The position numbers and the translations under genes were made by a program. DNA of 33,540 nt from contig JAAYZO010000535.1 in assembly GCA_012514865.1 (NCBI GenBank), forward strand, positions 1-33,540, in the 5' to 3' direction. Positions within the stretch are counted from its first letter, which is position 1; each line of letters begins with the position of its first letter. Under the pieces are notes generated by a model. That model made no database searches. It was not told where the DNA came from and was given only the letters and a program-made list of their open reading frames with translations. This DNA is from Lentisphaerota bacterium (GTDB lineage Bacteria; Verrucomicrobiota; Lentisphaeria; Oligosphaerales; JAFGRS01). This document shows, piece after piece, positions 3-23,300 of this stretch.

Positions 3-86
3 ATCGAGGACCTGAACACCTTCGTCTTCCAGCGTAAGGAACCACGCAAGACGCTGCGCCGGAAGGAACAGCAGCCACTAAGTTGA
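3..86 (+). CDS. Tentative 3' end of an unidentified CDS entering from the left edge (..IEDLNTFVFQRKEPRKTLRRKEQQPLS*)
   Basis: Frame 3 is open from the window edge for 27 codons and ends at TGA 84-86. 20 of 27 codons end in G/C, including the first ten. It would converge on the EF-G paralog. It is too short for any family call and could be a chance open frame in GC-rich DNA. Confidence 0.25.
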   Translation: MEDLNTFVFQRKEPRKTLRRKEQQPLS

Positions 87-226
87 CGCGTATGCCCTTC
101 GGGGTGGCCAGGGGAGCGCTGACGCGGTCTTCGTTCAGCCCTGGGGCTGTCACCGGCAGAACGGCGAACCACCCGTACCTCGGAGCTTCCGTCACTGGCA
201 GGTTCCGGCCATTGGAGGAAGATCCG

Positions 227-2293: not shown

Positions 2294-2299
2294 ACAAGA

Positions 2300-2304
2300 T
2301 CCTC
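2300..2304 (-). promoter_or_regulatory. Shine-Dalgarno (GAGGA) for the EF-G paralog
   Basis: The minus strand reads ..GCGAGGATCTTGT-ATG. GAGGA ends 6 nt before the start codon at 2291-2293. Confidence 0.6.
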
Positions 2305-2390
2305 GCTGGCGTCACCGACGCGGTAGCCTCTGCAGGAACCAGGCGAGGCCTGGCCGGCGGCCGGAATGCCGCCTGCGGACAACATGGCGT

Positions 2391-8700: not shown

Positions 8701-11700
8701 CGCTTGAACCAGAGTTCGGCGGTGTAGGTGGTCAGCGAGAGCTCGGCGCGGGCGGCAGCGCGCAGGAGGCTGCCGGGCAGGCCGTCGAAGCGGACGCTGC
8801 GGTTCTTGTACGGATCAAGGGCGTAGTTCGGCAGGGTGCCGCTGAGGAGCTCGACGAGGTCGTCGACGCTGTCATCGTCGGAGTCGGCGGCGTAGGGCTT
8901 GGTGCCATAGACCAGGACCTCGCTGCCATCCGGGATGCCATCGCCATCGGTGTCGGCGGCCATCGGGTTGGTGCCATCGCCGAGGCCCCAGGCCGGGAAG
9001 TCGGCGACGCCATCGCCGTCGGTGTCGACGTCGAAGCCCTCGACCTGGCCGATGCCATCGGCGCCGAGGTACTCGTCGAGGTTGGTGAGCAGATCGCCGT
9101 CGGGGTCATCGGCGTTGCCATAGAGCGCCAGGACGCGGGTACGGAAGGCGGCGTCGGTCTCGCCGGGGTTCTGCGTCAGGCTGCTGCTGAAGTTGGCGAA
9201 TTCCCACCAGTCGGGCAGGTCGTCGTGGTCGACATCGGCGGGCTGGTTCTCATCGCCGACGACGACGGCCCCGGACGGGTAGGCGGCGTGCGGCCAGTTG
9301 AAGAACCAATCCGGGAGGCTGTCGACATTGACCATCGTGGCGGTGAAGTCCTCGATGGAGTGGCTGTCGATGCCGAGGCCGTCGTCGAAGCGCCAGTAGC
9401 CGACCAGGGTGGCCGGGTCGGTGGGGCTGAGGGCGGCCAGGACGAGGGTGCCGGCGGTGTGGGCGGCGATCTGGGCCGGGGTGCGGACGCCCTTCCAGAG
9501 GCGGACCTCGTCGAGGCGAGCGCCGGCCGGGAGGGCCTGCGCGAAGCCGCCGCCGACGGCGTAGCCGGCGCCCATGCTGATCTCTTCGAAGCCGGGGGTG
9601 CCGCGGGTCTTCGGGGCGGTGGCCACCGGCAGCGCGCCGGCGACAGCGCCGTCGACGTAGAGCACGAGGGCGGTGCCGTTGAGGGTGGCGGCGAGGTGGT
9701 GCCAGGCGTCGGCACTGAGGGCCGCCGCGGCGGTGACCTGCCGGCTGGCGCCGGTGCTGTCAGTGAAGCGCGCGGTCGGCCGCCCGGCGTCGAGGCCGAG
9801 TTCGAAGTTGACCGTATCGAGAGGCGCCCCGGCGTCGAGAGCACGCCGCACGACGACACCGCTGGCGGTGCTGTCGGGGATGCTGACGCGGGCCTCGACG
9901 GTCCAGGTGGTGAGCTCGTGGCGGGCCTGGTTGGCGACCACGAAGCGTCCCTCGCCGTTGAAGAGTGCAGCGCGGGCGCGGAACGGATCCAGCGAGTTGA
10001 CCGCGGCGGCGCTGGCGCTGCTCTCGGACTGGTCGCGGACGCCGTCGTCGTCGGTATCGGCGCTGAGCGGGTGGGTGCGGTTGAGGTTCTGTTCGGTGAG
10101 GTTGCTGAGGCCATCGCCGTCCATGTCCTCATCGCCGTCGAGGATGCCATCGCCGTTGGTATCGGCCCGGGTCGGGTCGGTACCGGCGAGGAACTCGTAC
10201 CAGTCGCTGAGGCCGTCGCCGTCGAAGTCCTGGCCATCGAGGCCCTGCGAGACGTTGAGCGAGCCGAAGTAGGTCAGCTCCCAGGCATCGGGCAGGCGGT
10301 CGGGCTCGCCGACGCCGCTGACGACGCCATCGACGACGATGCTGCTGTTCGGGTAGTAGCGACCGGCGTGGCGCCAGTTCTGGTTCCAGTCGGCGACGAC
10401 ATGGAGGTCCTCGCCGGTGACGCCGCCGTCATCGAACTTGAAGTAGGCGACGAGGTTGGACGGGATATCGACCTCCGGACGGCCGGCCGGGTGGGTCGGG
10501 CCGTCATTGACGACGCCGTCGTTGTCGTTGTCCACGGTGTCGGTGAGGTTGGTCTCCGGGGTCGCGTAGGGCCCGGTCAGGTCGTCGGCGACGCCATCGC
10601 CATCGGTGTCGACGCCATCGGCGGACTCATCGACGTCGCCGGGAGACGGCGGCGTGACGATGAGGTCGGTCATGTCGGCGGTGGTGAGGAGGCTATCCCA
10701 GAGGGCGATCTCGTCGAGGTCGCCGACGAAGCGCTGGCAGGTGACGCGCTTGAGGGCATTGGCGCTGGAGTCTTCGGCGAAGCCGACAACCAGGTCGCCC
10801 ATGGCGTCGGTCACCGGCGAGCCGATGGCCACGCCGGTGGTCTGCATGCGGCGGTAGGTATCGCCGTCGGCGACGAAGAGGTTCAGGTCGAAGACGCGCG
10901 CCGTGCCGTCGGACGTATCGGTATTAAGGCGGGCGACGACGAGGGTCCAGGCGTCATCCGGGATCGGGGTGCCGCTGGTGACGCGGACGGTGCGGCCGGT
11001 GACCGGCATGTCGTAGCTGAACTCGACGGTGTTGGTCGCGGTCAGCACCAGGCGGTAGGTGGCGTCGGCGCCGTTGCGGACGGTGCGCCGCAGGATGCCC
11101 TGCGAGACCGCCGAGGCAGCCGGCTTGACCCAGACCGCCAAGGTGAAGCGCGAGGGCGCGGTGGCGGCGCTGTCACTGACCACCATGTACTCCGAGCCGG
11201 TCAGGCGCAGCAGGCGCGGCACCACCGGGCGCAGGGAGTTGGTCGGGTCGGTGCCGAGGACGAAGAGTTCCTCGTAGTCGGTGAGGCCATCGTCGTCGGT
11301 GTCGGCCAGGGCCGGGTGGGTGCCGTAGACCTGCTCCTCGTAGTTCCAGAGGCCGTCGCCGTCCGGATCTTCCTCGCTGTCCGGAGTGCCGTTGCCATCC
11401 GTGTCGAAGATGCCCGGGTGGGTGCCGGCGTAGTACTCGGCGAGGTCGCTGAGGAGGTCGTCATCGGCGTCGCCGGTGCCGTCGTGGCTGAGGTCGCCGA
11501 AGTACTGCAGCTCCCACCAGTCGGCCATGCCGTCGCCGTCGGTATCGGTCCAGCGGTCGGCGTCGAAGGGATCCGTCTCGGTGGGCAGCATCTCGCGCAG
11601 GCGGGCGTCGTTGCGCAGGGTGGCGGCGTTCTCCCAGTCATTGCGCCAGTCGTGGGCCGGCATGGCGAAGTCTTCGACGTGGCCCTCGACCAGCTCGAAG

Positions 11701-14700
11701 GCCTCGCCGTCGAGGTCGTCGTTGCTGCCGGTCCAGGTGCCGTCATCGAAGCGGTAGTAGGCGACGAGGTTCGGCTCGTTGCCGGCCAGGGTCGCGTAGC
11801 GCTCGGCCTCGATCTGCTCGCGCGGGATGGCGATGTCGTAGAGGCGGACGTCGTCGACCAGGCCGCGGAAGCCGTCGGTGCCGAGGCTGCCGACCGAGGT
11901 GACGACCGGGCCGGGGCCGTTGATGGCGCAGGTCGTGCCGATGGCCTGCGAGGCCACCAGGAGGCCATTGCGGTAGAGTCGCAGCGAGGTGGTCGCCGCG
12001 TCGTAGCTGGCGGCCAGGTGCGTCCAGACGCCGCCCATGACGGCGTCGCCGTTGAGGCGGGTGACGACCTTGTCAGCGGCCAGGCTGGCGCCGGTGACGC
12101 GGACCTGCGGCTGGCCGTTGGCGAGGCTCAGCTCCCAGGTGACGTAGTGCTTGCCGGTGGCGGCCTGGATGCCGACCGAGCGGCGCGGGACAACGCCGTT
12201 GATATCGGCGGCGCTGGCGGCCTCGGGGCGCACGTAGGCGGCGATCGTCCAGGACGACAGAGCGAAGCGCCGGTCGGTGGGCATGATCAGGGCCGCGCCA
12301 TCGGCGGTGAGGTCGAGGACGCGCGAGATCTGCGGGCTGAGCGAGTCGGTCGGGTCGGTGCCGCCGATGACCTCGGCGCCGTCCTCGATGCCATCGTCGT
12401 CGGTATCGACGCGGAGCGGATCGGTGAGGCGCGCGAACTCCTGGGCGTTGGTGAGGCCATCGCCATCGAAGTCCTCATCGGCATCCGGCACGGCGTCGTT
12501 GTCGGAGTCGGCGTCGCGCGGGTTGGTCATGAGGGCCTGTTCGTAGTAGTTCTCGAGGCCATCGCGATCCGGGTCATGCGGCAGGCCGTAGTCACGGTGC
12601 GGCAGCTCGCGGGCGAGGGCGTCCTCGGTCCACATGTAGTTCTCGTCCTGGATCCAGGTCGAGGCGGTGACGCCGTGCCAGACGGCGCGCGGGTCGAAGC
12701 GGCTGTCGTCACCGCGGACGATGACCAGCTCGCCGTCAACCTCGAGTTCGGCATCGAACTTGCCGGTGAAGATATCCTGGTTGAAGGTCTCGGCGCTGCC
12801 GTCGACGAGGTTGCTGTAGCGGATGACGCGGGTGTAGGACGAGGTGCGCTCGAAGAACACCGCGATCTGGTTGTTGCCCTGGACGAGGTACGGCGTGATG
12901 TCGACCGTGGCGGCCGGGGCGACGGCAGTGCCGTTGACGTAGAGGTTATCCAGGCTGCAGCCGGGCGACCACATGCGCAGGATGGCCTGCGTGGGCACCT
13001 GGGCCAGGCGGATGTACTTGACGACACGGACGAAGGCGCCGTCTTCGCCGAGGACATCCGACTTGGTCGAGCGGTACTGCAGGTTCTCCAGCCAGGAGAC
13101 ATCGCCGTTGCCGATCGAGGTGTAGGCCGTGAAGCTGCGCATGAAGGCGACGCCGTCGATCTCGCCGGTGTTGTCGTAGACGAAGGTCGGGTCGAGGCGG
13201 AACTTGGCCCACTCGTCGAGCTGGTGGAGCTTGACCCACCACTCGGCCAGGCCGTCGCCGTCGGCGTCGTCGATGCCGCGCACGCGGGCGGCCTGCGCGG
13301 TGGTGACGGGGGCGCGGATGACGTAGGAGCGCTCGCCGAGGTGGGCGAAGTCCTCGACCGTCTCGCCGTTGTCATCGAAGCGGTAGTAGACGCGGAGCAC
13401 GTCGCCGTACTCGTAGTCGGCCAGGTCGATGGTCTCGAGGGTCGGGAAGAGGTGCCGGCGCCAGTACGCGATCTCGTCGGCGGTGCGGACCTGGGCCCAG
13501 ACGCGGACCTCGTCCACGTAGCCGCTGTCGGCATCGCTGGCAACGCCGTCGGTGAAGCCGCGGGCCATGAAGGCCTTGCCGCTGGTGCCGACGCTCGGGT
13601 CGGCGAGGGTCTGCTGCGCCAGCATCAGGATGCCGTCGCGGTAGAGCCGCAGGGTGTTCTCGGCGGGTTCCCAGACGAGGGCCAGGTGGGTCCAGGTCGC
13701 GGGGACCAGCGCCGCGGTGCTGCCGGCGCCGCCGACGCGCACGATGGCGGTGTCGGTGGCGCTGTCGCCCTTACGGAAGATGACGCCCTCGGGGACGCCG
13801 TTGTCGAGCGACAGGCGGTAGCCGACGCGGTTATCGCCCTCGAAGCGGAGGATATCGCCGGTCTGGTCGACGAGGCCGGGGTAGACCCAGGCTTCGACGG
13901 TCCAGCCCTCGTAGCCGAAGGCGAAGCGCTGGCCGAAGGGCAGCATGACGCCGAAGCCCTCGCCATGGCGCAGGGCCATGCTGCGCGGGTCGGCCATGTT
14001 GCTGTGGGCCGGATTCGGGACGCTCATCGGGTGGGTCGGGCTGGTCACCGCTGTGACCTCGGCCTTGTCCTCGGCGCCGTCGTCGTCGGTGTCCTTCAGA
14101 TCCGGGCGGGTGCCGTAGGTCTGTTCCTCGAGGTTGGTGAGGCCGTCGCCATCGGCGTCCTCATGGCCGTCGGGGATGCCATCGCCATCGCTGTCGACGG
14201 CGTAGGGGTTGGTGCCGGACCAGTACTCGTAGATCGAGGTGAGGCCATCGCCGTCGTCATCGAACTGCGAGTCGTCGTACCAGCTCCAGTGGCCATTCTC
14301 GTCTTCCCACCAGTCGGGCATGCCATCGCCGTCGGAGTCGGTCTCGCTGGGCTGGACCGGCGAGGTCGGCGCCTCGACGATCTCGGCCGTGTCGGTGGTG
14401 CTCTCGAGGACGGCGGCGTTGAACCACTCGGTCTTCCAGTCGTCGCGGTTGACGGCGAAGTCCTGGGCGGTGGCGCCGTTATCGTCGAAGATGTAGCTGG
14501 CGACGAGGCCCATCGGGAGGGCGGCCGGGGTCACCACCGGGTCGCTCGGGCGGGCCGTGACGCGGAACGGGCTGTCGTTCGGGATCGCCGTGTCGGTGCT
14601 CTCGGTGTCGCCGAGGAGGACCAGGTCGGCATGGCGCGTCAGGCGCGCCTCGCCGGCGACGGCGGCGCCCACCAGGCTCGGCTCCACCGGGCTGACCGCC

Positions 14701-17318
14701 GGGCGGTCGGCGACGGTGATGGTGTCGTTGCCGCTGAAGTCGGTACGGGCGACATTCCAGACGCAGACCGCGTCGATGTCGCCGAGGAAGCCGTCACCGA
14801 CGACCACCTCGCTGACGCCGACGGCATCGGCGCCGGGGCGGACGCTCCCGACCGGTATCGAGGTCGGGAAGCCGTTGTTGACGACGATCGAGAGGGTCTT
14901 GGCCTCGGCGCCGTAGACGGCGGCGATGTGGGTCCAGACGCCGGTCTCGATCACCGCCACCGCGGCCGCGTTGGCGGCGCTCGGGACCTGCAGGGCGACG
15001 CCGCCGTTGCCGGCCGCGTCCTTGGCGCTGACGAAGCGTGCGTACGGCCGCAGGGCCCCGCCGATCCGGGCGACGCCGAGTTCGTAGTTGACGGTCTCGA
15101 AGGTGCCATTCAGATCGGCGTCGATGCGGCGGCTGACGATGATGCCGCCATCGCTGTCGGCGGCGTCGATCTTGACCCAAGCGTCGACCGTCCAGGAGCC
15201 GCCCAGGGCAAAGCGCGGCTGGTTGGGCAGGACGAGGCGGTCGCCGGCCTGGGCGAGGCGCAGGGCGCGCGACACCCACGGCGACAGGGCGTTGTCCGGG
15301 GCACTGCCGGCGGTGACTTCGACGGCGTCGGTACGGCCGTCGTCATCGAGGTCGCTGACATCGGCACCGCCGACGGTGGGCACGCCGGGGTGGGTGCCGG
15401 CGAGCTGTTCCTGGAGGTTGCTGCGGCCGTCGCCGTCGCTGTCCAGGAGCTGGTCGGGGGTGACGCCGTCGGTGACGCCGAGGAACGGGTGCGTGCCGGC
15501 GAGGTACTCGGAGTGGTTGGTGAGGAGGTCGCCGTCGAGGTCGAGATCGGCGTCCGGCAGGGCCGGGTTGAAGTTCAGGGCGGCCTCGAACCACTCCGGC
15601 ATGCCGTCGCGGTCGCTGTCGCCGGGCAGGCTGAGGAAGTGCGCCTCGGCGGCGGCGGGGGCGTGGACGCTGACGCCGCTGCCCGCGGCCCAGGTGGCCG
15701 CGAAGCGGGCGGTGGTCTCGGCGCCGGCGGCGTCGGTGAGGGTGAAGACGTCCTCACGCTCGGTGAGGTCGAGCACGAAGCGGCGGTCGTCCATGCGGTC
15801 GTCGGCGCGGAAGCAGGCGACCATGACGCGGGCGCTGGCGAGGTCCATGGCGGCCCGGGCATTGAGGCGGCCGCCGGTGAGGACGACGCCATCCAGCGCC
15901 GGGATGCTGTCGGTGCCGTCGAGGAGGCCGGCCTTGATGTCGGCGAACGAGGCTCGCGGCGAGCGCGCGTAGAGGAGTGCGGCGACGCCGGCGACGTGCG
16001 GGCAGGCCATCGAGGTGCCGGACATCGTCTGGTAGCCGCCGCCGGGGGCGGTGCTGAGGATGTCCTCACCGGGCGCGGCCAGGTCGACCGAGGTGGCGCC
16101 GTAGTTGCTGAACCAGGCCAGGGTGTCGGTGGCGTCGGTAGCGGCCACGGCGACGATGTTGTCGTGGTCGAACGAAGCCGGGATGGCCGGGATGGCGTCG
16201 TTGTTGTTGGCGTCGTTGCTGGCGGCGGCGACGAAGAGCTGGCCGGCGCTGCGGGTGCGGCTGACGGCGTCGTAGAGGGCCTGCGAGTAGCCGTAGCCGG
16301 CCCAGCTGTTGCTGGTCAGGGTGGCGCCCATGCGGATGGCGTAGTCGATGGCCGCGATGGCGCCGGCGGTGGTGCCGCCGCCGCTGGCGTCGAGGAACTT
16401 CAGCGCCATGATGCGGACATTCCAGTTGACACCGGCGACGCCGATGCCGTTGTTGCCGACCGCGCCGATGGTACCGGCGCAGTGGGTGCCATGGCCGTCG
16501 TCGTCGATGGGATCGCCGTCGTCATTGGCGAAGTCGTAGCCGTAGACGTCGTCGATGTAGCCATTGCCGTCGTCGTCGATGCCGTTACCGGGGATCTCGC
16601 CGGGGTTCGTCCACATGTTGGCGGCGAGGTCCGGGTGGGTGTAGTCGACGCCGGTGTCGATGACCGCGACGACCACGCCGCGGCTGCCGGTGGAGCGGTC
16701 CCAGGCCTCGGGGGCGTCGATGTCGGCATCGGCAGCGCCGCCGGTCTGGCCGGTGTTGTGCAGGCCCCAGAGCTGGCCGAAGAGCGGGTCGTTCGGCATG
16801 GCCACGGCGCGGAGCTGGTAGTTCGGCTCGGCGTAGACCACGTCGGCACGCTCGCGGTAGGCGCGCAGGGCATCACGCAGGGCCATGCCGGCCGGGACCG
16901 CGACGAGGTCGATACCCAGGGCCGCGGTGCGCGACAGGACGGTGCCGCCGAGGGCGGCGTGCAGGGCGGCGCGCTGCTGGGCGCTGGTGGCCGGCTGGAG
17001 CTTGACGAGGAGCTGTCCGGGCTCGTGATCCGGGACCAGGGCCGCGTCGACGTCGGCCTGATAGACGCTGCTGAGGCCCTGGCCATAGGCGATGGCCCGG
17101 CCGCCGGCAGCGCTGTCGGCGGTGCGGAAGTCGCGGAAGATCTGCTGCGCCGGCAGGGCGCCGTTGTAGATGCGGACCTCGTCGATGGCGCCGGTGAAGC
17201 CCATGCCGAGGGTGGTCTCGGCGCCGTCGAAGATGCCGTCGGTCGAGGTCGCCATTGGCGTCGCAGGCGCAGGCGAACTCACCGGTGAGGTCGATGCGCT
17301 CGGCGACCGGCATGCCAT
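2766..17318 (-). CDS. Giant LamG/TSP3-repeat surface protein, 3' portion (frame B). Contains the I9-S8 subtilase, LamG modules 13 (C-terminal part) to 20, Ig-like repeats, a PPC domain and the C-terminal module.
   Basis: 4850-codon ORF ending at TGA 2766-2768, with recognisable domain motifs throughout (see sub-features). Roughly the first 25 residues (MACRSPSASTSPVSSPAPATPMATS) look like out-of-frame filler. Genuine sequence starts near DGIFDGAETTLGMGFTGAIDEVRIY, which is the C-terminal end of a LamG module whose body lies in the upstream ORF. This is most likely the continuation of 16873-33540 across a frameshift, not an independent gene. Confidence 0.9.
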   Translation of the reverse strand: MACRSPSASTSPVSSPAPATPMATSTDGIFDGAETTLGMGFTGAIDEVRIYNGALPAQQIFRDFRTADSAAGGRAIAYGQGLSSVYQADVDAALVPDHEPGQLLVKLQPATSAQQRAALHAALGGTVLSRTAALGIDLVAVPAGMALRDALRAYRERADVVYAEPNYQLRAVAMPNDPLFGQLWGLHNTGQTGGAADADIDAPEAWDRSTGSRGVVVAVIDTGVDYTHPDLAANMWTNPGEIPGNGIDDDGNGYIDDVYGYDFANDDGDPIDDDGHGTHCAGTIGAVGNNGIGVAGVNWNVRIMALKFLDASGGGTTAGAIAAIDYAIRMGATLTSNSWAGYGYSQALYDAVSRTRSAGQLFVAAASNDANNNDAIPAIPASFDHDNIVAVAATDATDTLAWFSNYGATSVDLAAPGEDILSTAPGGGYQTMSGTSMACPHVAGVAALLYARSPRASFADIKAGLLDGTDSIPALDGVVLTGGRLNARAAMDLASARVMVACFRADDRMDDRRFVLDLTEREDVFTLTDAAGAETTARFAATWAAGSGVSVHAPAAAEAHFLSLPGDSDRDGMPEWFEAALNFNPALPDADLDLDGDLLTNHSEYLAGTHPFLGVTDGVTPDQLLDSDGDGRSNLQEQLAGTHPGVPTVGGADVSDLDDDGRTDAVEVTAGSAPDNALSPWVSRALRLAQAGDRLVLPNQPRFALGGSWTVDAWVKIDAADSDGGIIVSRRIDADLNGTFETVNYELGVARIGGALRPYARFVSAKDAAGNGGVALQVPSAANAAAVAVIETGVWTHIAAVYGAEAKTLSIVVNNGFPTSIPVGSVRPGADAVGVSEVVVGDGFLGDIDAVCVWNVARTDFSGNDTITVADRPAVSPVEPSLVGAAVAGEARLTRHADLVLLGDTESTDTAIPNDSPFRVTARPSDPVVTPAALPMGLVASYIFDDNGATAQDFAVNRDDWKTEWFNAAVLESTTDTAEIVEAPTSPVQPSETDSDGDGMPDWWEDENGHWSWYDDSQFDDDGDGLTSIYEYWSGTNPYAVDSDGDGIPDGHEDADGDGLTNLEEQTYGTRPDLKDTDDDGAEDKAEVTAVTSPTHPMSVPNPAHSNMADPRSMALRHGEGFGVMLPFGQRFAFGYEGWTVEAWVYPGLVDQTGDILRFEGDNRVGYRLSLDNGVPEGVIFRKGDSATDTAIVRVGGAGSTAALVPATWTHLALVWEPAENTLRLYRDGILMLAQQTLADPSVGTSGKAFMARGFTDGVASDADSGYVDEVRVWAQVRTADEIAYWRRHLFPTLETIDLADYEYGDVLRVYYRFDDNGETVEDFAHLGERSYVIRAPVTTAQAARVRGIDDADGDGLAEWWVKLHQLDEWAKFRLDPTFVYDNTGEIDGVAFMRSFTAYTSIGNGDVSWLENLQYRSTKSDVLGEDGAFVRVVKYIRLAQVPTQAILRMWSPGCSLDNLYVNGTAVAPAATVDITPYLVQGNNQIAVFFERTSSYTRVIRYSNLVDGSAETFNQDIFTGKFDAELEVDGELVIVRGDDSRFDPRAVWHGVTASTWIQDENYMWTEDALARELPHRDYGLPHDPDRDGLENYYEQALMTNPRDADSDNDAVPDADEDFDGDGLTNAQEFARLTDPLRVDTDDDGIEDGAEVIGGTDPTDSLSPQISRVLDLTADGAALIMPTDRRFALSSWTIAAYVRPEAASAADINGVVPRRSVGIQAATGKHYVTWELSLANGQPQVRVTGASLAADKVVTRLNGDAVMGGVWTHLAASYDAATTSLRLYRNGLLVASQAIGTTCAINGPGPVVTSVGSLGTDGFRGLVDDVRLYDIAIPREQIEAERYATLAGNEPNLVAYYRFDDGTWTGSNDDLDGEAFELVEGHVEDFAMPAHDWRNDWENAATLRNDARLREMLPTETDPFDADRWTDTDGDGMADWWELQYFGDLSHDGTGDADDDLLSDLAEYYAGTHPGIFDTDGNGTPDSEEDPDGDGLWNYEEQVYGTHPALADTDDDGLTDYEELFVLGTDPTNSLRPVVPRLLRLTGSEYMVVSDSAATAPSRFTLAVWVKPAASAVSQGILRRTVRNGADATYRLVLTATNTVEFSYDMPVTGRTVRVTSGTPIPDDAWTLVVARLNTDTSDGTARVFDLNLFVADGDTYRRMQTTGVAIGSPVTDAMGDLVVGFAEDSSANALKRVTCQRFVGDLDEIALWDSLLTTADMTDLIVTPPSPGDVDESADGVDTDGDGVADDLTGPYATPETNLTDTVDNDNDGVVNDGPTHPAGRPEVDIPSNLVAYFKFDDGGVTGEDLHVVADWNQNWRHAGRYYPNSSIVVDGVVSGVGEPDRLPDAWELTYFGSLNVSQGLDGQDFDGDGLSDWYEFLAGTDPTRADTNGDGILDGDEDMDGDGLSNLTEQNLNRTHPLSADTDDDGVRDQSESSASAAAVNSLDPFRARAALFNGEGRFVVANQARHELTTWTVEARVSIPDSTASGVVVRRALDAGAPLDTVNFELGLDAGRPTARFTDSTGASRQVTAAAALSADAWHHLAATLNGTALVLYVDGAVAGALPVATAPKTRGTPGFEEISMGAGYAVGGGFAQALPAGARLDEVRLWKGVRTPAQIAAHTAGTLVLAALSPTDPATLVGYWRFDDGLGIDSHSIEDFTATMVNVDSLPDWFFNWPHAAYPSGAVVVGDENQPADVDHDDLPDWWEFANFSSSLTQNPGETDAAFRTRVLALYGNADDPDGDLLTNLDEYLGADGIGQVEGFDVDTDGDGVADFPAWGLGDGTNPMAADTDGDGIPDGSEVLVYGTKPYAADSDDDSVDDLVELLSGTLPNYALDPYKNRSVRFDGLPGSLLRAAARAELSLTTYTAELWFKRASTTAAEQVLLSRRSGSSVTVEIGIDATHKPFARFTYLGGSALTVTSSLTVQDATAWHHLAVVYDPRSTTGETGNFRLYLDGIMRGIVFTSITPDLPLTDLTLGGNGLSGFAGKIDDVRVWKVARSLAQINGSRFQRLSGGEANLVSYFIMDDDEWAGSALSPARYGAQDMVTNRLADSARGEGGYAFDTDVPNLLASDADGDGLPDAWEIANGLMPNDATGANGATGDPDNDGLDNLGEYRAGTRARLADTDGDGMADGWEVAYGLNPLADDAGVDLDGDGLSNIDEYLGADLVVDLVSVPPNWGDATDPLDSDTDGDGLPDGWERRYLLDATDATGVNGAAGDPDADGLTNSQERDYLTDPTDADTDGDGLPDGWEVANRLSPVDGNGRHGAAGDPDGDAASNIVEFGQGTDPNDRDSDDDDLPDGWEIRYDLNPLSAATPNGRNDDPDMDNRTNYEEYLAGTNPKVPEDETTDSDGDGLTDIQEWQPGVFTDPNLVDTDDDGADDYAEFVTGTQGYNSLSNERVNANVDLSRYAGLDYRGNLMARLETDEFLRAPGVDDALQRLAFSSWTVEARFRFRTGDDPAQRGQIDLDDHAVGEELFLVRRGFEVTTPGATADTNYAIGLKVGQNAGGKYLYPFTAWTNTADAGATPLANLRTAEVANLELFENQWYHLVGRYDSARHVLSLFLDGVLVAEQVGVPGYCPTVLPTRTAFVRFGENYAGDLDEVRIWGVDPRSLQYVDPTSGLTYYLNGATRSNAEITAFSSRTAMPVIGAYDGGLADAFNLANTDTSAYVVDRHVSQMPWTTPSGTVGRLATGVFYDDANANHAWDEGEAVWADQPGDGVLLIGTAGAYDAGIDLLIHGAAPAAATGTTRALALYYHDANADRAYQPADEDAWVDYANKASWYDAQPAPWAKAMGLALYLKFDDAGEHIEDFAWHADWRAGWMHAVLPGSANGAPLPTMDDVVMDGNDAPGMPRIRIDPATTTHEVARDAVLRVVVTLPSTDPDGLTVQYRYYWFRGVAAPTSPNAAVGFIDANGNGDWDEGEDLFEDADADGLYDLGETILVADNAALATSVTLDLARLGAAAGEVYYVVVVPVDDLGKQGPFALDYAVTTVRTAPQRPIFMSLNPDAPEVGDALTLSLRNPNATSITFLVDWYRNGEFFMSSPAAQVAANSATQVRLSGNLTRRGDLWGFMAYARDLAGGLSRPTYGSGNDPQVRVTRVIGGAANVVVDNDPPTTPTQVTVTPETAFTQDMLLCTASGSSDPDGDVFAYFYQWFRFDATAGGYLAVDGLTSPVLDEAETEPGDRWFCQVTAVDVFGNASVSVSSNPVVIAETLTGVYAYEPNNTANQARRILPKSNPLSLADTAIQDHSFVAQDDRDWFWFVVEDGPGYEQVKVTFETNGGAELWTPQHNSASDAADTVLALYSASPNGGAPRFIRQVDDIGVLRQPGSSSYARIVATLDPGIYYVQVWTNQILIDTNREYSVHLWFETPAGASGPSAPAHVVLTPAAPEITSDLVCEAGGAISPLGADAVSYRYVWYRNGLMVPFGSGAQPYEGYNYILANAKPDTSPDGSPANVVPARYTAEGEVWSCLVFAVDRNGESLGTLSNEVTIGSRSWTQSIQVDKTFTDGTPAVTQTVTIGWRSGATQGFDMGIDADLPTSIPPPGDPSGPPTGPGGVGAGTAVATTPSGSSYIIGFDQEHTRLTTDMRPYGDLTAWYLKVELGRNPGSCRIRWTDLGLPVTETPLILTRVDEGPYGELYPVSGSAVDMSAFSDITISSAEMAELLERADRDGVAPVAVFRISLGTGDRSQTISLRYGWNMISLAVEPVTSDVQSVFAFAGQPVIAGMVWAYEGGSYVPVLRVRAKVGYWVFCPFPNGATFTVHGMPTDGTLALEAGWNLVGPAVQTNALTAYGAYGIGGGNGTVNLNNIMTLNPVTMAYETVTTMVPGRAYWIEAFRRVNLPLSGPPR
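2769..3240 (-). other. Unassigned C-terminal beta-rich module with duplicated GWN(M/L)(I/V)...G(Y/A)YW(V/I) motifs
   Basis: YGWNMISLAVEPVTSDVQSVFAFAGQPVIAGMVWAYEGGSYVPVLRVRAKVGYWVFCPF...LEAGWNLVGPAVQTN...MVPGRAYWIEAFRRVNLPLSGPPR*. It contains no hydrophobic helix plus basic tail, no LPXTG and no PEP motif. Confidence 0.4.
3838..4195 (-). other. Fourth Ig-like repeat of the same type, C-terminal to the PPC domain
   Basis: PSAPAHVVLTPAAPEITSDLVCEAGGAISPLGADAVSYRYVWYRNGLMVPF...TAEGEVWSCLVFAVDRNGESLGTLSNEVTI. Confidence 0.5.
4264..4665 (-). other. Bacterial pre-peptidase C-terminal (PPC)-like domain
   Basis: YEPNNTANQARRILPKSNPLSLADTAIQDHSFVAQDDRDWFWFVVEDGPGYEQVKVTFETNGG...DTVLALYSAS...ATLDPGIYYVQVW. 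This fits the PPC layout (E.N(D/N)t...A..l, D.DW(f/y).F, D..l.LY, GtYYv.V). Confidence 0.65.
4685..5780 (-). other. Three Ig-like beta-sandwich repeats (approx 5345-5780, 5015-5335, 4685-4988)
   Basis: Recurrent pattern: P..P..v.(l/v).P..p...d.L.C.a.g.sDPDGD...Y.Y.W(F/Y)R.g......L......GD.W.C.V.A.D..G..s..v.S..V.I. Example: NDPPTTPTQVTVTPETAFTQDMLLCTASGSSDPDGDVFAYFYQWFRFD...PGDRWFCQVTAVDVFGNASVSVSSNPVVI. I cannot assign a family name. Confidence 0.5.
7150..8115 (-). repeat. Dense run of TSP3/EF-hand-like calcium loops organised as about 5-6 tandem 52-64-aa units
   Basis: The units begin D(A/T/S)DGDG(L/M)(P/A)D(A/G)WE(I/V/R), continue through ..G..G..GDPD.DG(L).N..E(Y), and end ..GT(D/N)P.D.. 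For example: DTDGDGLPDGWERRYLLDATDATGVNGAAGDPDADGLTNSQERDYLTDPTDA followed by DTDGDGLPDGWEVANRLSPVDGNGRHGAAGDPDGDAASNIVEFGQGTDPNDR. Confidence 0.75.
12670..13180 (-). other. Galactose-binding-like jelly-roll insert (copy c)
   Basis: ..FVRVVKYIRLAQVPTQAILRMWSPGCSLDNLYVNGTAVAPAATVDITPYLVQGNNQIAVFFERTS...EVDGELVIVRGDDSRFDPRAVWHG. Clear paralog of copy b. Confidence 0.45.
15834..16793 (-). other. Subtilisin-like serine peptidase domain (MEROPS S8) with intact catalytic triad
   Basis: The catalytic Asp lies in VVAVIDTGVDYTHPDL (codon 16656-16658). The His lies in DDDGHGTHCAGTIGA (codon 16491-16493). The Ser lies in MSGTSMACPHVAG (codon 16011-16013). An oxyanion-region Asn occurs in VAAASNDANNN. 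There is a Ca-binding-type insertion GNGIDDDGNGYIDDVYGYDF. I checked all three triad codons against the nucleotide sequence. Confidence 0.9.
16803..17018 (-). other. Peptidase inhibitor I9-like subtilase propeptide (internal)
   Basis: GQLLVKLQPATSAQQRAALHAALGGTVLSRTAALGIDLVAVPAGMALRDALRAYRERADVVYAEPNYQLRAV. It has the typical ..v.f....s......a...G..v.........v......a...l......V.yaEPn... propeptide layout and sits directly N-terminal to the S8 domain. Confidence 0.6.
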
Positions 17319-20300
17319 CGATGTAGAGGCGCAGGGTGCGGGTGTTCTGGTCGAAGGTGGCGGCGAGGTGGGTCCACTCGCCGGCCGTCACGGCCAGGCC
17401 AGCCAGGCCGGCCCCGCCGACCTTGAACTCGCGGCCGTTGGCCATGACCAGGCGGGCGTACGGGCGCAGGGCGCCGTCAGCCTCGAGGCCGAGGTCGTAG
17501 TTGATGGCCTGCACCGCGGTGCGGCGCTGAATGACATGGCCGGCGGCCTCGGGCAGCACCCAGGCCTGGACCGTCCAGCTCGCGGCCGCGTACTTGGCCT
17601 GGTCGGGGATGATCACCCCGGCGCCGGCGCTGGCGAAGTCGAGGTGCTGGCGCTGCGGCGGGTAGACATTGCTCAGCGGGTTGAGCGGGTCGCTGGCGTA
17701 GGCATCGACGGCGGCCTGGCGCGGCAGGCCGAGGCCGGGGTACATCTGCTCGCCGAAGACCTCCTCGGCGTCGGTGAAGCCATCCGCGTCGCTGTCGGCG
17801 AGGCGCGGGTCGGTGCCGAAGCGCTGCTCGAGGCCGTTGATGAGGCCGTCGCCATCGCTGTCCTCTCGGAAGTCGCCGGCGCAGTCGTCGCAGTCGTCGA
17901 GCTGATCCGGGTGCGTCCCGCAGAGGAACTCGTAGAGGTTGTTCAGGCCGTCGTTATCCGGGTCGGCGAGCGGGTCGTCGACGCGGTAGAAGACCTCGAA
18001 CCAGTCGGCCATGCCATCGGCGTCGCTGTCGTCGAAGCCGTAGAGGCGCAGGGCCTCGTCGGTGCCGATCCAGTCGGCGGTGCCGTCAGCGTCGGTGTCG
18101 CCGACGCCGTAGAGGGCCGCCGGGATGGCGTGCGTGTCGGCCTGCTCCCAGCCCGGGTGCGCGAAGTCCTCGATGGACATGCCGCCGTCGTCGAAGCGGA
18201 AGCAGCGGAACAGCCCGGTGGCGCTGGCGGGGACCAGCTCCCAGCGCGCCCGGTCGATCTGCGCGGCGGTGCGCGCCGTGGTCCAGATGCGGACCTCGTC
18301 CAGGCAGACGCTGCTGGTCGACCAACTCGGGAAGGCCGCCAGGGTGAAGGAGCCGACGCCGCTGGCCGGGGCGTAGTCGAAGTCGGTCTCGCGGAACTCC
18401 AGACGGAACTGCGAGGCGCCGTTGAGCAGGAGGCTCAGGGTGCGCTGGCGGCTGTCCCAGGTCGCGGCCAGGTGCGTCCAGGTCGACGGCGCCAGGGCGA
18501 CGTCGGCATCGAGGCGCTTCTCCGTGCCGCGATCGGTCTGGTAACGGACGTAGGGCCGGCCGGCGGCGATGCCGAGTTCGAAGGTGGTCAGGGCGCCCAT
18601 GCTGCGGCGCACCAGGACACCCGTCTCGCTGCTCGGGTCGTCGGCGCGGAACCAGGTCTCGACCGTCCACTCGGGCATGAGCTGGGCGCGCTCGGTGGCC
18701 AGGAGGGGCACCGAGAGGCCGCTGGTGCGGCCGGCCTGGCTGACCAGGAAGTGGCGGGCCACGGCCGGGCTCATCGAGTGACGCGGGCTGGTCAGGCCGG
18801 TGACTTCGTCGCCGTCCTTGAGGCCGTCGTCGTCGGTGTCGGCATTCCGCGGGTCGGTCTGGTACTGCTGTTCCTCGTAGTTGGTCAGGTCGTCGTTGTC
18901 GGTGTCCTCGGCGCTGTCGAGGATGCCGTCGTCGTCGCTGTCGGGGTTGGTCGGGTCGAGGTCAGCGAGGTACTCGTAGAGGTCGTTGAGGCCATCGCCA
19001 TCCTGGTCGCCGGTGCCATCCGAGACGGTGATATCGCCGAAGTAGTGGATCTCCCACCAGTCGGCCATGCCGTCGGCGTCGCTGTCGACATCCCAGAGGA
19101 CCGGGCTGGCGCCGCCGAGGTCGATGACGTCGGCCGTGCCGCGCAGGGCGGCGGCGTTGGTCCAGTTGCGGTTCCAGTCGCCGCTGTTGGCGATCAGGCT
19201 GTCCTGGGCGGTCTCGCCATCGTCATCGAAGCGGTAGTAGGCCACCAGGCCGGCCTCGTCGCCGACCAGCAGGCCGGTCATCGTCGCGGCGACCTCGTCG
19301 GCCGTGCGGACGCTGCCCCAGATGCGGACGTCGTCGATGACGCCGGTGAAGCCCTCGCCGATGCGGGTGTAGGCGACGCCGGGGCCGGAGCGCACCGGAG
19401 CGGTGGTGCTGCGGCGGTCACGGGCCTGAGCGCCGTCGAGGATCAGGGTCAGGGTGCGGGTGGTGTCGTTGTAGACACCGGCCACGTGCGTCCAGGCCAG
19501 GCCGTCGGCCGTGATCGGCTGCAGCGAGGTGGCGCGCACCATGGTGCCGCGGCCGTCGCTGTAGCAGGCCTCGACCTTGCCGTCGGGCAGGAGGTGCAGG
19601 GCGTAGTTGATGTTGAGCTGGCCGGCCTTGGTGCCGACGACGCGCTCGACGATGCGGGCGGTGGTGCCGGCGGCCGGGAGGGCGCTCGGCCGGATCCATG
19701 CCTCGATCGTCCAGTCGGTCAGCGCAAAGCGCGCCTGCAGGGGCAGCTCGGCGTAGGAGCCGGCCGTGCCGTCGAGGGCCAGGCCGCGCATCACCGTCGG
19801 GCTGTTGCCGTCGGTCGGGTCGGAGCCGGCCGTGACCTCGACGCCGTCCTCGAGGCCGTCGTCGTCGGTGTCCTTGGTGACCGGGTCGGTGCCGAAGAGG
19901 TCCTCACGTGAGTTGGTGAGGCCGTCACCGTCGAAGTCCTCGTCGCCGTCAGCGATGCCGTTGTTGTCGCTGTCGCGGTCCATGGGGTTGGTACCCAGCA
20001 TGAACTCGAGGAGGTTGGTGACGCCGTCGAAGTCCGGGTCATTGGCAATACCGTAGTCCTGGTGCGGCGGGAAGTGGCCGCTGTAGTCGGTCCAGGGCTG
20101 CTGGGTGGTGCTGGTACGGCCGTGCCAGACGGTGCGCGGGTCGAACTTATGGTGGTCACCGCGGACGATCACCTCGCGGCCGTCGACGGTCAGGGCGGCG
20201 TCCATCTTCATGCTGGCGCGCGGCCAGGTGTAGGCCTGGACCGGCCACGGACGATCCTGCAGGACCGGGGCCTGCCCGCCGGGGTTGTAGACCCAGAAGC

Positions 20301-23300
20301 TGGGCGGCACCACGAAGTAGGTGGAGGTGCCGCCGCCGGTGTCGCGCAGGCGCAGGTAGATCTGGTTGCGGCCGGCGCGCAGGTAGGTCGCGATGTCGAC
20401 GGTGCCGGTGCCGGCCAGTCCGACGCCGACGCCGTTGACCGTCATCTGGTCCACCGCGCCGTTCGGCAGGAGCAGCTCGAAGGGCGCCGTCTCCGGAGCG
20501 CGGTCCAGCACGATGTACTTCATCAGGTGCATGAACATGCCGGAGTCGTAGTTGATGATCGACTTGGTCAGCACGGTCATCAGGTCTTCGACGTAGTTGG
20601 TCGTCGTGCCGATCGAGCTGAAGACCGTGAAGTCACGGACCATGTGGCCGCTGCTGGAGAGCGGCGAGGGCAGGTTCGCGCCGGTCGGGACGGCGGTGTG
20701 CGGGCCGGGGTTGCCAGCGAGCCAGCCACCGGGCGGGGTGAAGTAGCCCTCGGTCATCTGGCCGTCGACATTCAGGTCGTTGCGGGTGTCCGTGAAGGGC
20801 GCGCCCCAGATCATCTGGCGCCAGTTGTTGAGGTTGTGGAGGCTGACCCACCATTCCGGGAGGCCATCGCCGTCGTCGTCATCGACGCCACTGAGAGGCG
20901 CGGCCTGGTCCTCGGTGAGGGTGGCGCCGGCGAGGGCGTAGTCCTCATCGCGGAAGGCGCGGAAGTCCTCGGCGAGGAGGCCGGCGTCGTCGAAGCGGTA
21001 GTAGAGCCGCAGGACGTCGCTGTAGAGGTAGATGGTCCGGCTGGCGAAGGGGTTATCGGCGTCGGGGATCAGCTCCTGGAGGGCGAGCTGCGGGCTGAAG
21101 CTGCCGGTGTCGATGGTCTCGTAGGTCGGGATGATCTCATCGCGCCAGCGGTTCAGCTCCTGCTCGGTGCGGGCCTCGCCCCAGACGCGGATCTCGTCGA
21201 GGTGGCCGCTGGTCAGGTCGCGGCCGACCCAGGCATTGCCGGCGGCGATGGTCGGCACCGCCAGGGTCTGCTGCGCAATCAGCAGGATGCCATCGCGGTA
21301 GAGGCGCAGGCTGTTATCGGCCGGGGCCCAGACGACGGCCAGGTGGTGCCAGCTCCCGACGGGCACCGCCGGCACGGCGGCGCTGCCGCCGACCTTGACG
21401 ACGTCGGCCGTGCCGCTGAAGATGCGGCCGACCGGGGCGCCGTCCTCGAGGCCGAAGCTGAAGCTCTGGCCGTTGACGCCTTCGTAGAGGAGGAACGAGC
21501 CGGTCTGCGTCGTGACGTCGGCGGCGGCGCGGTACCAGGTCTCGAGGGTCCAGGCGGTCTGGCCGAAGGCGAAGCGCTCGGGATGCGGGATCTCGAGGCC
21601 GCGGCTGGCGGTCTGGGCCGCCAGGGCAGCGAGGTCGAGGCTGGCGGGCTTGAAGTTCGGCCGGCTCATCGGGTGGACCGGCGAGGTGGCCGCGTCGACC
21701 TCGGCCTTATCGTCGTAGCCGTCGTCGTCGCTGTCGGTCAGGCGCGGGTCGGCGCCGTGGGTCTGCTCCTCGCGGTTGGCGAGGCCGTCGCGGTCGAAGT
21801 CCTCGTTGCCGTCGGTGACGCCGTTGTTATCGGTGTCGGTGTCGTAGGGGTTGGTGCCGACGTAGAACTCGTAGAGGTTGCTGAGGCCATCCTGATCGAG
21901 GTCGCTGGTGGCGTCGAGGGCCAGGGCCGGCTCGCCGCTGTGGACATCCTCCCACCAGTCCGGCAGGCCGTCGGCGTCGCTGTCGTCGATGCCCTTCATC
22001 GTCTTGGCGTCGGTGGTGACCGTCCAGTCGGCATGGCCGTCGCCGTCGGCGTCGGTGACGCCGTAGCTCCCTGCCAGGAGACTGTATTTCAGGACATCAC
22101 GGTGGGCCGGGTGGCCGTAGGGCCGGGTGAAGTCCTCGATGGCCATGCCGCCGTCGTCAAAGCGGTAGTAGGCCAGGAGGCCGGTGCCGGAGACGATGCT
22201 GTCGCGGCTGGCGCGGACCTGGGCCAGGGTCATCGCCGCGGCGCGGATGCGCACCTCATCGACAAGGCCGCTGGTCAGCGTGGCGCTGCCGGCGGCGCTC
22301 TCGGCCATGCCGTTGCCGCCCACGTACATCGACCCGACGCCACTGACAGGGCGCTCGAGGGCGATCGTCTTGTACTCCAGCACGCCGTCGACGTAGAGGC
22401 TCAGGGAGTTCTGAGCCGCGTTGTAGCTGCCGGCGATGTGGTACCAGCGCCCGGGGGTCAGTTTGGGCGCGACGTTGACGCCGCCCGCGGTGTAGGGCTT
22501 GTTGCTCTCGGCCTGGAAGCGGCTGTAGGGATAGCCGTCCTTCACGCCGATCTCGGCGGCGGTCCGGCGGCGGACCTGGACGCTGATGATAGCGCCGGTG
22601 TCGTCGTCGGCCAGGCGGACCCATGCCTGCAGGCTCCACGCCTGGGCCAGGGCGGCGGTGCGATCGCCGTCCGGCAGGGCAATGCCGCTGTTGGTACCTG
22701 TCGCGACAGCGTCATTGACCGTGGCCAGGTCGAGGCTGCGCGGCGGCGTCAGGCGGTAGTTCCCCAGGCTGTCGACCGGGACGGCGGTGTCGAAGTGAGC
22801 CATGGAGTAGAGCGGGCTGGTGATGTAGTGCGGACGGTCGGGGCTGCCGTCGGGGGAGCCGAACAGCTCCGCGTCATCGCGGACGCCATCGTCGTCGGTG
22901 TCGACCAGGCCGGGATGCGTGCCGAGTTCCTGCTCCTCGCCATTGGTGAGGGTGTCCCCGTCGGTGTCGTCGTGGTAGTCGTCGGTACCGTTGTGGTCGG
23001 AGTCGGCCTCGTTGGGGTCGGTGTCGGCGTAGTACTCGTAGAGGTTGCTCAGGCCATCGCCGTCGGGATCGGCCAGGCTGTCGTCGACATTCGGGTCGGT
23101 GCCGTTCTCCTGTTCCCAGAGGTCGGGCATGCCGTCACCATCGGAGTCACGCTCGCCGGAGACGGCGTTGTCGGAAGCGAGTGTGGTGCCGTTCCGGTTG
23201 AGGGCGTGTGACCAGCCGGTGAACCAGTCCATGCGCCGGGCGAAGTCCTCGTAGGTCTGGCCGCCGTCGTCGAACAGGAAGGCGTACACGAGGCCGTTGC

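Follow-up and report, generated by a model that had tools for sequence, protein, structure and literature searches.

The locus and the giant gene

The stretch of DNA analysed here comprises 33,540 nucleotides from a Lentisphaerota bacterium (assembly GCA_012514865.1, contig JAAYZO010000535.1, positions 1–33,540 of the forward strand); it is referred to below as the window and has a G+C content of 70%. Its minus strand carries two huge overlapping open reading frames (ORFs), 16873..33450 (5,525 amino acids) and 2766..17318 (4,850 amino acids), which become one frame of 10,258 residues with a stop codon at 2766–2768 when two bases are restored at a single site. The upstream frame starts partway through a LamG domain (33451–33540, minus strand) and is still open at the window end, 33540; the true N-terminus and the signal peptide therefore lie outside the window and the complete protein is longer than 10,258 amino acids. 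Repaired translation and Pfam analysis show a single giant gene (2766..33540, minus strand) that, with the 2-nt repair, comprises at least 10,258 codons.

The encoded protein contains 20 LamG domains, with clusters of TSP3 calcium-binding repeats between them, and a single unit made up of a prodomain and a peptidase S8 domain (the pro-S8 unit). Apart from this unit, the only Pfam matches on the two ORFs are Laminin_G_3, TSP3_bac, Laminin_G_2 and a weak Pentaxin, and S8 is the sole enzymatic domain that Pfam recognizes among the LamG and TSP3 repeats. It is situated mid-chain, with 5,508 residues of the window sequence ahead of it and approximately 4,350 after it, in agreement with the values of about 5,500 and 4,350 given in a first-pass annotation.

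The catalytic domain and its prodomain

The pro-S8 unit is a deseasin-like subtilase with intact catalytic residues and a prodomain of its own. The catalytic domain (15837..16796, minus strand; delimited from PF00082, the match to PDB entry 3VV3 and Foldseek) matches Peptidase_S8 (PF00082) with an E value of 5.9e-56 and 190.3 bits against a cutoff of 21.8 (Pfam search of window positions 15400–17318, minus strand). The catalytic triad consists of Asp5629 (16656–16658, in VIDTGV), His5684 (16491–16493, in HGTHCAG) and Ser5844 (16011–16013, in GTSMACP), at exactly the codons to which the first-pass annotation had assigned them, and the oxyanion residue is Asn5745 (16308–16310, in SNSWAG). The triad motifs and the oxyanion asparagine fall on invariant columns of 56-sequence alignments, and the triad motifs are also present in the orthologs P0001 and L003 described below and in nearly all of the giant relatives. 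Non-catalytic subtilase homologs do exist, and the CspC type appears among the weak NCBIfam matches, which gives some precedent for an S8 fold kept as a binding or structural module that performs no catalysis. With the Asp, the His, the Ser and the oxyanion Asn all present, and the triad columns invariant, we find such a pseudo-protease scarcely credible. Mycosin, dentilisin PrtP and similar NCBIfam subtilase families gave sub-threshold matches only, and the S8 domain is accordingly not a member of any of them.

Two AlphaFold models (AF2), one full and one trimmed, were each searched against the PDB with Foldseek. In both models the predicted local distance difference test score (pLDDT) exceeds 90 for the prodomain and the catalytic domain, with a mean of 95 for model 2. 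The best PDB match is deseasin MCP-01 (PDB entry 3VV3), both by sequence (phmmer E value of 3e-109, 56–58% identity) and by fold, for which Foldseek gives a template-modelling (TM) score of 0.96 and a root-mean-square deviation (r.m.s.d.) of 1.0–1.1 Å. Thermitase, savinase and SUB1 follow with TM scores of 0.85–0.95. The catalytic domain is 63–67% identical to free-standing secreted subtilases, which argues that general protease function has been retained, and on this comparison the embedded protease is apparently functional.

The prodomain (16797..17030, minus strand, with its GQLLVKLQP start at 17018) matches PF22148, Fervidolysin_NPro-like, with an E value of 3.9e-15 and 56 bits against a cutoff of 21. 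It had previously been described as an I9 propeptide. The presence of a prodomain is borne out, and its predicted fold, β-α-β-β-α-β (DSSP E-H-E-E-H-E, pLDDT >90), is of the same class as I9, but the family assignment does not hold, as no match to PF05922 was found at E ≤ 0.01 in Pfam. The tail of the domain (...YAEPNYQLRAVAM) is conserved, and YAEPNY...PNDP agrees with the family consensus. Sequence identity of the prodomain is 44% to P0001 and 34–38% to free-standing subtilases.

In front of the prodomain lies a linker of 33 residues (DSAAGG...VPDHEP; 17019..17117, minus strand), which is predicted to be disordered (pLDDT <50, residues 1–34 of model 1) and is devoid of any hydrophobic signal-peptide-like stretch. 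Behind it, the predicted autoprocessing junction (16788..16829, minus strand) falls between EPNYQLRAVA and MPNDP. Its position comes from an alignment to mature deseasin MCP-01 where the ordered structure begins: residue 4 of 3VV3 (TNDPRF) pairs with PNDPLF of the window. The junction motif EPNY...PND is kept in giant and free-standing members alike.

The frame break and the sister sequence

The frame of the giant gene is interrupted at 17241/17242, approximately 75 codons upstream of the prodomain and within LamG domain 13 (repaired residues 5275–5475; 17118..17718, minus strand, from Pfam and the LamG map). At this point the upstream frame reads ...LYIDGMPVAERIDLTGEFACACDANGDL and then continues as arginine-rich nonsense, and the downstream frame picks up at ...TDGIFDGAETTLGMGFTGAIDEVRIYNG. 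A 54-mer from the S8 region retrieved a sister contig, L002 (3,398 bp), from the metagenome-assembled genome (MAG) WAS_Bin_35, which is approximately 99% identical to the window. At the break site (17223..17250, minus strand) the window has GACCTCGAC-CGACGGC, whereas the sister MAG has GACCTCGACGGCGACGGC (D-L-D-G-D-G), that is GACCTCGAC-GG-CGACGGC; the GG is absent between 17242 and 17241 of the window. L002 is a single uninterrupted frame of 1,132 codons spanning LamG, prodomain, S8, TSP3 and LamG, and LamG 13 of the window is an intact domain, scoring 167 bits, once the GG is restored. Fifteen codons and two in-frame 3-nt indels separate L002 from the window; judged by these differences, L002 is another strain or assembly and not a copy of the window. 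We note that WAS_Bin_35, the source of both L002 and L010, is labelled 'Verrucomicrobia bacterium', while the close relatives of the C-terminal region of the gene all belong to Lentisphaerota/Victivallales. The label probably reflects an old or coarse assignment within the Planctomycetes–Verrucomicrobia–Chlamydiae (PVC) superphylum.

A LamG domain homologous to LamG 13 stands in frame with the prodomain in P0001, in L003 and in the Victivallales contig CAIZKT010000577. The break had been proposed as a possible remnant of a fusion between a subtilase gene and a repeat-adhesin gene; two nucleotides have been deleted there from a LamG domain that the relatives have unbroken, and the break is therefore not such a remnant. 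From these alignments the break is a window-specific deletion, either a sequencing error or a recent strain-specific lesion, rather than a gene-fusion scar. Programmed frameshifting at the site was also considered and set aside, since close and distant orthologs are in frame and no X XXY YYZ slippery heptamer was seen by eye (no scan was run).

The ORF finder places ATG codons at 17318 and 17255, upstream of the prodomain, and from either of them the S8 unit could in principle open an independent downstream gene (ORF 2766..17318) whose seemingly internal position is due to the break. The sequence that follows both ATGs is, however, out-of-frame LamG with no hydrophobic stretch resembling a signal peptide. 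Furthermore, the LamG domain split by the break is continuous in L002, P0001, L003 and CAIZKT010000577, and the only signal peptide of the full-length relatives is found thousands of residues upstream. Two separate genes, or an artefactual fusion of two, are thus highly improbable. L002 and CAIZKT010000577 read straight through the break and the protease is therefore truly internal; on the sequences compared, this internal position is reproducible and conserved and is not an artefact.

Orthologs and the wider family

The best protein match to the window, P0001 (52% identity), is encoded on contig L001 (ENA ERZ2647986, coverage 1.17x), which is collinear with repaired residues 3905–7437 and has LamG/TSP3 fragments on either side of the match. 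Contig L003 (ENA ERZ2647956, coverage 2.6) encodes TSP3, LamG, linker, prodomain, S8, linker and TSP3 in one ORF of 889 amino acids, with identities of 45% to the window and 54% to P0001. On the low-coverage contigs L001 and L003 the orthologous giant gene has been called as 5–20 short genes, very probably fragments into which sequencing frameshifts have divided one gene. CAIZKT010000577, recovered by a GTDB scan with the S8 unit and merged with the C-terminal locus of the same contig, is open in one frame for 7,898 amino acids or more and aligns with repaired residues 3095–10251 in a single tblastn high-scoring segment pair (64% identity over 7,240 columns).

Alignment of the C-terminal region of the giant protein against GTDB identified relatives in approximately 19 genomes of Lentisphaerota/Victivallales, one of them that of the isolate Oligosphaera ethanolica. 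For the DSM 24202 strain of this isolate (contig NZ_JAUSVL010000001.1, upstream of position 1,546,227) the 10 kb covered contained no S8 region. Five of these loci (L009, L013, L014, L019 and L023) have an S8 unit upstream in the same orientation, and the frames are open for 3,900–4,090 amino acids or more from the edge of the locus to the C-terminus. The relative L087 (CAMBQV010000008.1) is a protein of 5,782 amino acids that begins with a classical signal peptide (MNTRTRFSNLVKKMVLPLAVCGMMCATGALAQ) and has its S8 domain at residues 3406–3713. The MAG from which L087 derives is labelled Akkermansia muciniphila and the G+C fraction of the contig is 0.52; the taxon label may be a binning or labelling error.

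An exhaustive search of 1.84 billion representatives, with the prodomain, S8, TSP3 and LamG 14 as the query, yielded 59 listed matches longer than 3,000 amino acids that were assessed. Among these, 22 proteins of 3,107–7,192 amino acids have exactly one pro-S8 unit each, placed mid-chain, with 2–7 LamG domains before it and 0–5 after it (none after it in two). Those with a complete N-terminus begin with Met, in most cases followed by a hydrophobic signal-like stretch, and in none of the 22 was a signal-like stretch seen directly before the prodomain. They include a Kiritimatiellia cluster annotated by NCBI as 'S8 family serine peptidase' (for example MDP6810988.1), with 5,918 amino acids in three MAGs, and another cluster with a representative of 5,354 amino acids and six members of 5,346–5,355 amino acids from separate assemblies. 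An index of 5.8 billion proteins gave 17 matches for the post-S8 module and three for the C-terminal region. We also note a second class among the listed matches, in which two or three prodomain–S8 units stand in tandem in proteins of 3,000–4,800 amino acids with no LamG domain (P0141, P0143, P0145, P0149, P0160, P0161, P0164 and others); large secreted proteins with an internal pro-subtilase unit are thus not rare.

These relatives bear directly on the earlier proposal that a single giant gene contains the pro-protease within it, which is upheld by the 99%-identical L002, the 64%-identical Victivallales ortholog and the 22 large relatives. A survey of orthologs had been suggested in case S8 should always prove to be a separate secreted gene; in the relatives it is internal. 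Across many PVC lineages the sequences indicate that a common layout is conserved, namely a signal peptide, TSP3–LamG modules, one mid-chain pro-S8 unit and further modules. The window shows the whole of this layout except for the N-terminus, and the signal is seen in the relatives only. Since the complete relatives have an N-terminal signal peptide, the window protein is very probably secreted as well. Public databases already contain many sequence relatives with generic names, and the titles and abstracts returned by one full-text search of the PVC literature describe no family with a mid-chain pro-S8 unit among LamG and TSP3 repeats. With a layout that dozens of related bacteria share, the giant protein belongs to a widespread, unstudied family and is no isolated case.

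Module anatomy and the position of the cassette

The TSP3-rich linkers between LamG domains are 150–430 amino acids in length, compared with 596 amino acids for the gap that holds the protease, between LamG 13 and LamG 14 (14709..15329, minus strand, from the LamG map; the first LamG past the protease). In regular modules the LamG signature G-x-I-D-E-V-R-I-W is followed by the motif (L)VAYYRFDDG. The spacing from signature to YYRFDD is exactly 35 residues in six of the 17 signature-bearing modules (in repaired numbering, for instance, 166 to 201, 931 to 966, 1294 to 1329, 4733 to 4768 and 7227 to 7262) and 41–68 residues in four more. This fixed spacing suggests that the YYRFDDG strand is structurally part of the LamG module. 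In the module that carries the protease, the corresponding motif (MVACFRADD) is found 459 residues past the signature. From the comparison of 459 with 35 residues, a cassette of approximately 425 amino acids (the 33-residue linker, the prodomain and S8) sits within an otherwise fixed short spacer between LamG 13 and LamG 14. The segment after S8 (15453..15836, minus strand), which starts from MVACFRADD and passes into the first TSP3 repeats, has low pLDDT and no Pfam match; by its motif it is the usual inter-module YYRFDDG segment and not a C-terminal domain specific to S8. Neither PF01483 nor PKD was found by Pfam in the segments of 640 and 167 amino acids after S8.

The G+C fraction across the cassette is 0.71–0.73, compared with approximately 0.70 in the flanks, and in a neighbour-joining tree calculated without bootstrap support the S8 units of the window and P0001 cluster together. 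Recent horizontal acquisition of the cassette was rejected, as its G+C is not anomalous and the two units group in this unsupported tree. The same two observations are weakly consistent with an old insertion.

The C-terminal region and neighbouring genes

The giant protein ends in a non-repeat region of approximately 600 amino acids (2769..4562, minus strand) that belongs to no Pfam family and is conserved at 33–65% identity in the approximately 19 Lentisphaerota/Victivallales genomes mentioned above. A PPC domain had been attributed to this half of the protein. We could not substantiate it: no Pfam family, PPC (PF04151) included, was detected at E ≤ 5 in the last 599 amino acids, and a PDB sequence search with the DRDWFWF segment gave no relevant match. 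A PPC-like motif, DRDWFWF...GIYYVQV, is recognizable in the region by eye alone.

Directly downstream on the same strand is an EF-G gene (227–2293, minus strand), which scores 645 bits against a TIGR00484 cutoff of 659. The pairing of the giant gene with EF-G recurs in 16 related Lentisphaerota loci at 62–82% identity, including that of the isolate O. ethanolica DSM 24202. The window also contains long ORFs on the plus strand, which are probably mirror ORFs of the kind expected at such a G+C content; the one that was tested, 83..2326, has no Pfam match.

Proposed processing of the giant protein

In our view, the best explanation as a whole, to which we assign a probability of roughly 0.6, is that an intact pro-S8 unit embedded in the giant LamG/TSP3 protein cuts its own chain and then persists as a tethered protease. 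After export, the prodomain would chaperone the folding of the adjacent catalytic domain, as in established subtilase biology, and the enzyme would then cleave, in cis, the chain of which it is part at the junction between prodomain and S8, approximately between YQLRAVA and MPNDP. Self-processing at this junction is plausible by analogy with canonical subtilase maturation. Given the mid-chain location, such a cut would necessarily split the precursor in two, into an N-terminal half of at least 5,580 amino acids with the prodomain at its end and a C-terminal half of approximately 4,680 amino acids that begins with the mature protease. At first the halves would be joined non-covalently by the inhibitory complex of prodomain and protease. 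Once the prodomain was degraded or displaced, the tethered protease would act on proteins and glycoproteins held by the lectin-like, calcium-stabilized LamG/TSP3 fibre, and might possibly trim the fibre itself. Because its identity to ordinary secreted subtilases is as high as 63–67%, the S8 domain is probably more than a single-use self-cutter and digests external proteins that the fibre holds.

Several points weigh against this interpretation. The cleavage and the activity of the S8 domain are predictions drawn from what is known of subtilases. When compared with the zymogens of pro-subtilisin E, pro-Tk-subtilisin and SUB1, the AlphaFold models give an r.m.s.d. of 23–26 Å over approximately 440 columns and do not reproduce the canonical docking of the prodomain with its tail in the active site. 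The N-terminus of the window protein, and hence its secretion signal, was not recovered, as DNA patterns from the 5' end of the gene found no match in metagenome, viral or GTDB contigs; a look-up of the exact 4,850-amino-acid ORF product likewise gave no match. The gene is frame-shifted in the window sequence as given, and if the deletion is real no protease would be made in this strain. Finally, within S8 there is a cluster of differences from L002 (16170–16217, minus strand; a 3-nt deletion and four substitutions, SNDANNND-AIPAIPASF versus SNEANNNDGAFSAYPASF) that includes a tandem GCCATCCCG duplication and the loss of a Tyr that at least 90% of homologs share. This cluster could be a local assembly error or the result of micro-conversion.

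The last two of these points also favour a pseudogene in this strain, in which the 2-nt deletion is real, translation stops at 16873–16875 after approximately 123 out-of-frame codons, and the protease and the C-terminal half remain unmade. The same 3 kb contain other real-looking differences from the sister MAG, among them the two in-frame 3-nt indels (CGG/GGC-type, in the regions of window 17475–17477 and 16192–16194; L002 226–228 and 1510–1512), and the occurrence of these two indels suggests that repeat DNA rich in GGC/GAC often slips or is ambiguous to assemble. This is, however, the single frame-disrupting change in 30.8 kb, the two halves being otherwise open for 5,525 and 4,850 codons, and all relatives are intact. 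Outside the S8 cluster, seven synonymous differences from L002 are found against four non-synonymous ones, as expected with ongoing purifying selection, and a true deletion is no more likely than a consensus or assembly error in the GC-rich GACGGC repeats. We judge a pseudogene to be improbable.

The reading of an intact, self-cutting and then tethered protease can be extended, more tentatively, to a conserved, built-in 'breakpoint and clasp' mechanism for giant PVC surface proteins, which we put forward as a speculative possibility that on balance we doubt. Autocleavage would give two chains of approximately 5,000 residues held together by the prodomain–protease complex, and loss of the prodomain would both free half of the fibre and activate the tethered protease. 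As the cassette interrupts the otherwise fixed 35-residue spacing from LamG to YYRFDD, the YxRFDD strand after S8 may fold back onto LamG 13 and so provide a second link between the chains. If true, this would constitute an undescribed mechanism of maturation and regulation for giant proteins.

The pro-S8 family offers a testable handle on how bacterial proteins of 5,000 to more than 10,000 residues are folded, exported and matured, and on whether they act as one chain or as processed pieces, since textbook maturation of a mid-chain pro-subtilase would necessarily halve the precursor. Lentisphaerota and Kiritimatiellia are degraders of complex glycans and glycoproteins, and a lectin-like fibre with a broad-specificity protease may matter for the extracellular degradation of glycoproteins. 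There is also a lesson for annotation, in that one gene is concealed here by a frame break and by the many fragmentary ORFs of low-coverage contigs, and such genes vanish from protein catalogues.

Comparison with known systems

Deseasin MCP-01 from Pseudoalteromonas sp. SM9913 (PDB entry 3VV3) is a secreted multidomain S8 subtilase of ordinary size with caseinolytic and collagenolytic activity. In deseasin MCP-01 the catalytic domain is followed by a P-proprotein domain and a collagen-binding PKD domain. The window protein resembles it in the catalytic domain with its triad and oxyanion residue, in the prodomain in front and in the attachment of substrate-binding domains to the protease. It differs in that the pro-protease is placed approximately 5,500 residues into a protein of more than 10,000 amino acids and is followed by LamG and TSP3 modules, with no P-domain or PKD.

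The gingipains RgpA and Kgp of Porphyromonas gingivalis and WprA of Bacillus subtilis are protease–adhesin polyproteins whose processed fragments stay together at the cell surface. Like the window protein, these join a protease, a prodomain and binding modules in one precursor. They differ from it in catalytic class (the gingipains) or in being far smaller, and their protease is N-terminal rather than mid-chain.

Verrucomicrobiota proteins of 10,000 amino acids or more have been reported, as have giant Omnitrophota proteins ('Archaeovorins' and dockerin-type) for which S8 and C39 domains are proposed to do the cleaving (West-Roberts et al., bioRxiv 10.1101/2023.11.21.568195). Like these, the window protein is a giant from the PVC superphylum (at least 10,258 amino acids here) with a subtilisin-family domain, which in the Omnitrophota proteins is proposed to cut autocatalytically. 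In those proteins, however, S8 or C39 is near the N-terminus and is accompanied by glycosyl transferases, glycosyl hydrolases, methyltransferases and transmembrane segments. The window protein lacks the marks of the Archaeovorin and dockerin types: Pfam finds no glycosyl transferase or hydrolase, methyltransferase, NUDIX or dockerin domain, and its S8 domain is mid-chain.

Secreted polymorphic toxins likewise have a protease domain, there proposed to self-process, inside a long Sec-exported repeat protein, and Peptidase S8 is listed among the releasing (processing) peptidases embedded in them (Zhang et al., 2012, PMC3482391). Their repeats are of the RHS or filamentous-haemagglutinin type and they end in a hypervariable C-terminal toxin followed by an immunity gene. 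The C-terminus of the window protein, by contrast, is conserved (33–65% identity in approximately 19 genomes) and the gene downstream encodes EF-G; a reading of the protein as a polymorphic toxin was rejected for these reasons.

Both of these systems nevertheless lend weight to a narrower role, in which S8 would make one or a few self-cuts of the giant precursor and have no external substrates, in the manner of the peptidases that release polymorphic toxins or of the cysteine protease domain of MARTX. An embedded subtilisin is catalogued as a processing protease in secreted multidomain toxins (PMC3482391), the S8 and C39 domains of the giant Omnitrophota proteins are proposed to act in this manner (10.1101/2023.11.21.568195), and the family has exactly one S8 domain per protein at a conserved mid-chain position. 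Against this, identities of 63–67% to broad-specificity subtilases and of 56–58% to the caseinolytic and collagenolytic MCP-01 represent more conservation than a single turnover needs, and the gene has neither a variable C-terminal toxin nor an immunity gene. We consider a release-only peptidase unlikely and prefer a protease that cuts its own chain and then acts, tethered, on other proteins.

The Kiritimatiellia 'S8 family serine peptidase' proteins and metagenomic relatives have the same architecture as the window protein and are approximately 40% identical to it over a contiguous stretch of approximately 770 amino acids that covers prodomain, S8, TSP3 and LamG. They are shorter, with 2–7 LamG domains before the pro-S8 unit and 0–5 after it compared with at least 13 and seven, respectively, in the window. 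They also differ in the C-terminal region, as none of the 22 matches the C-terminal 600 amino acids of the window protein.

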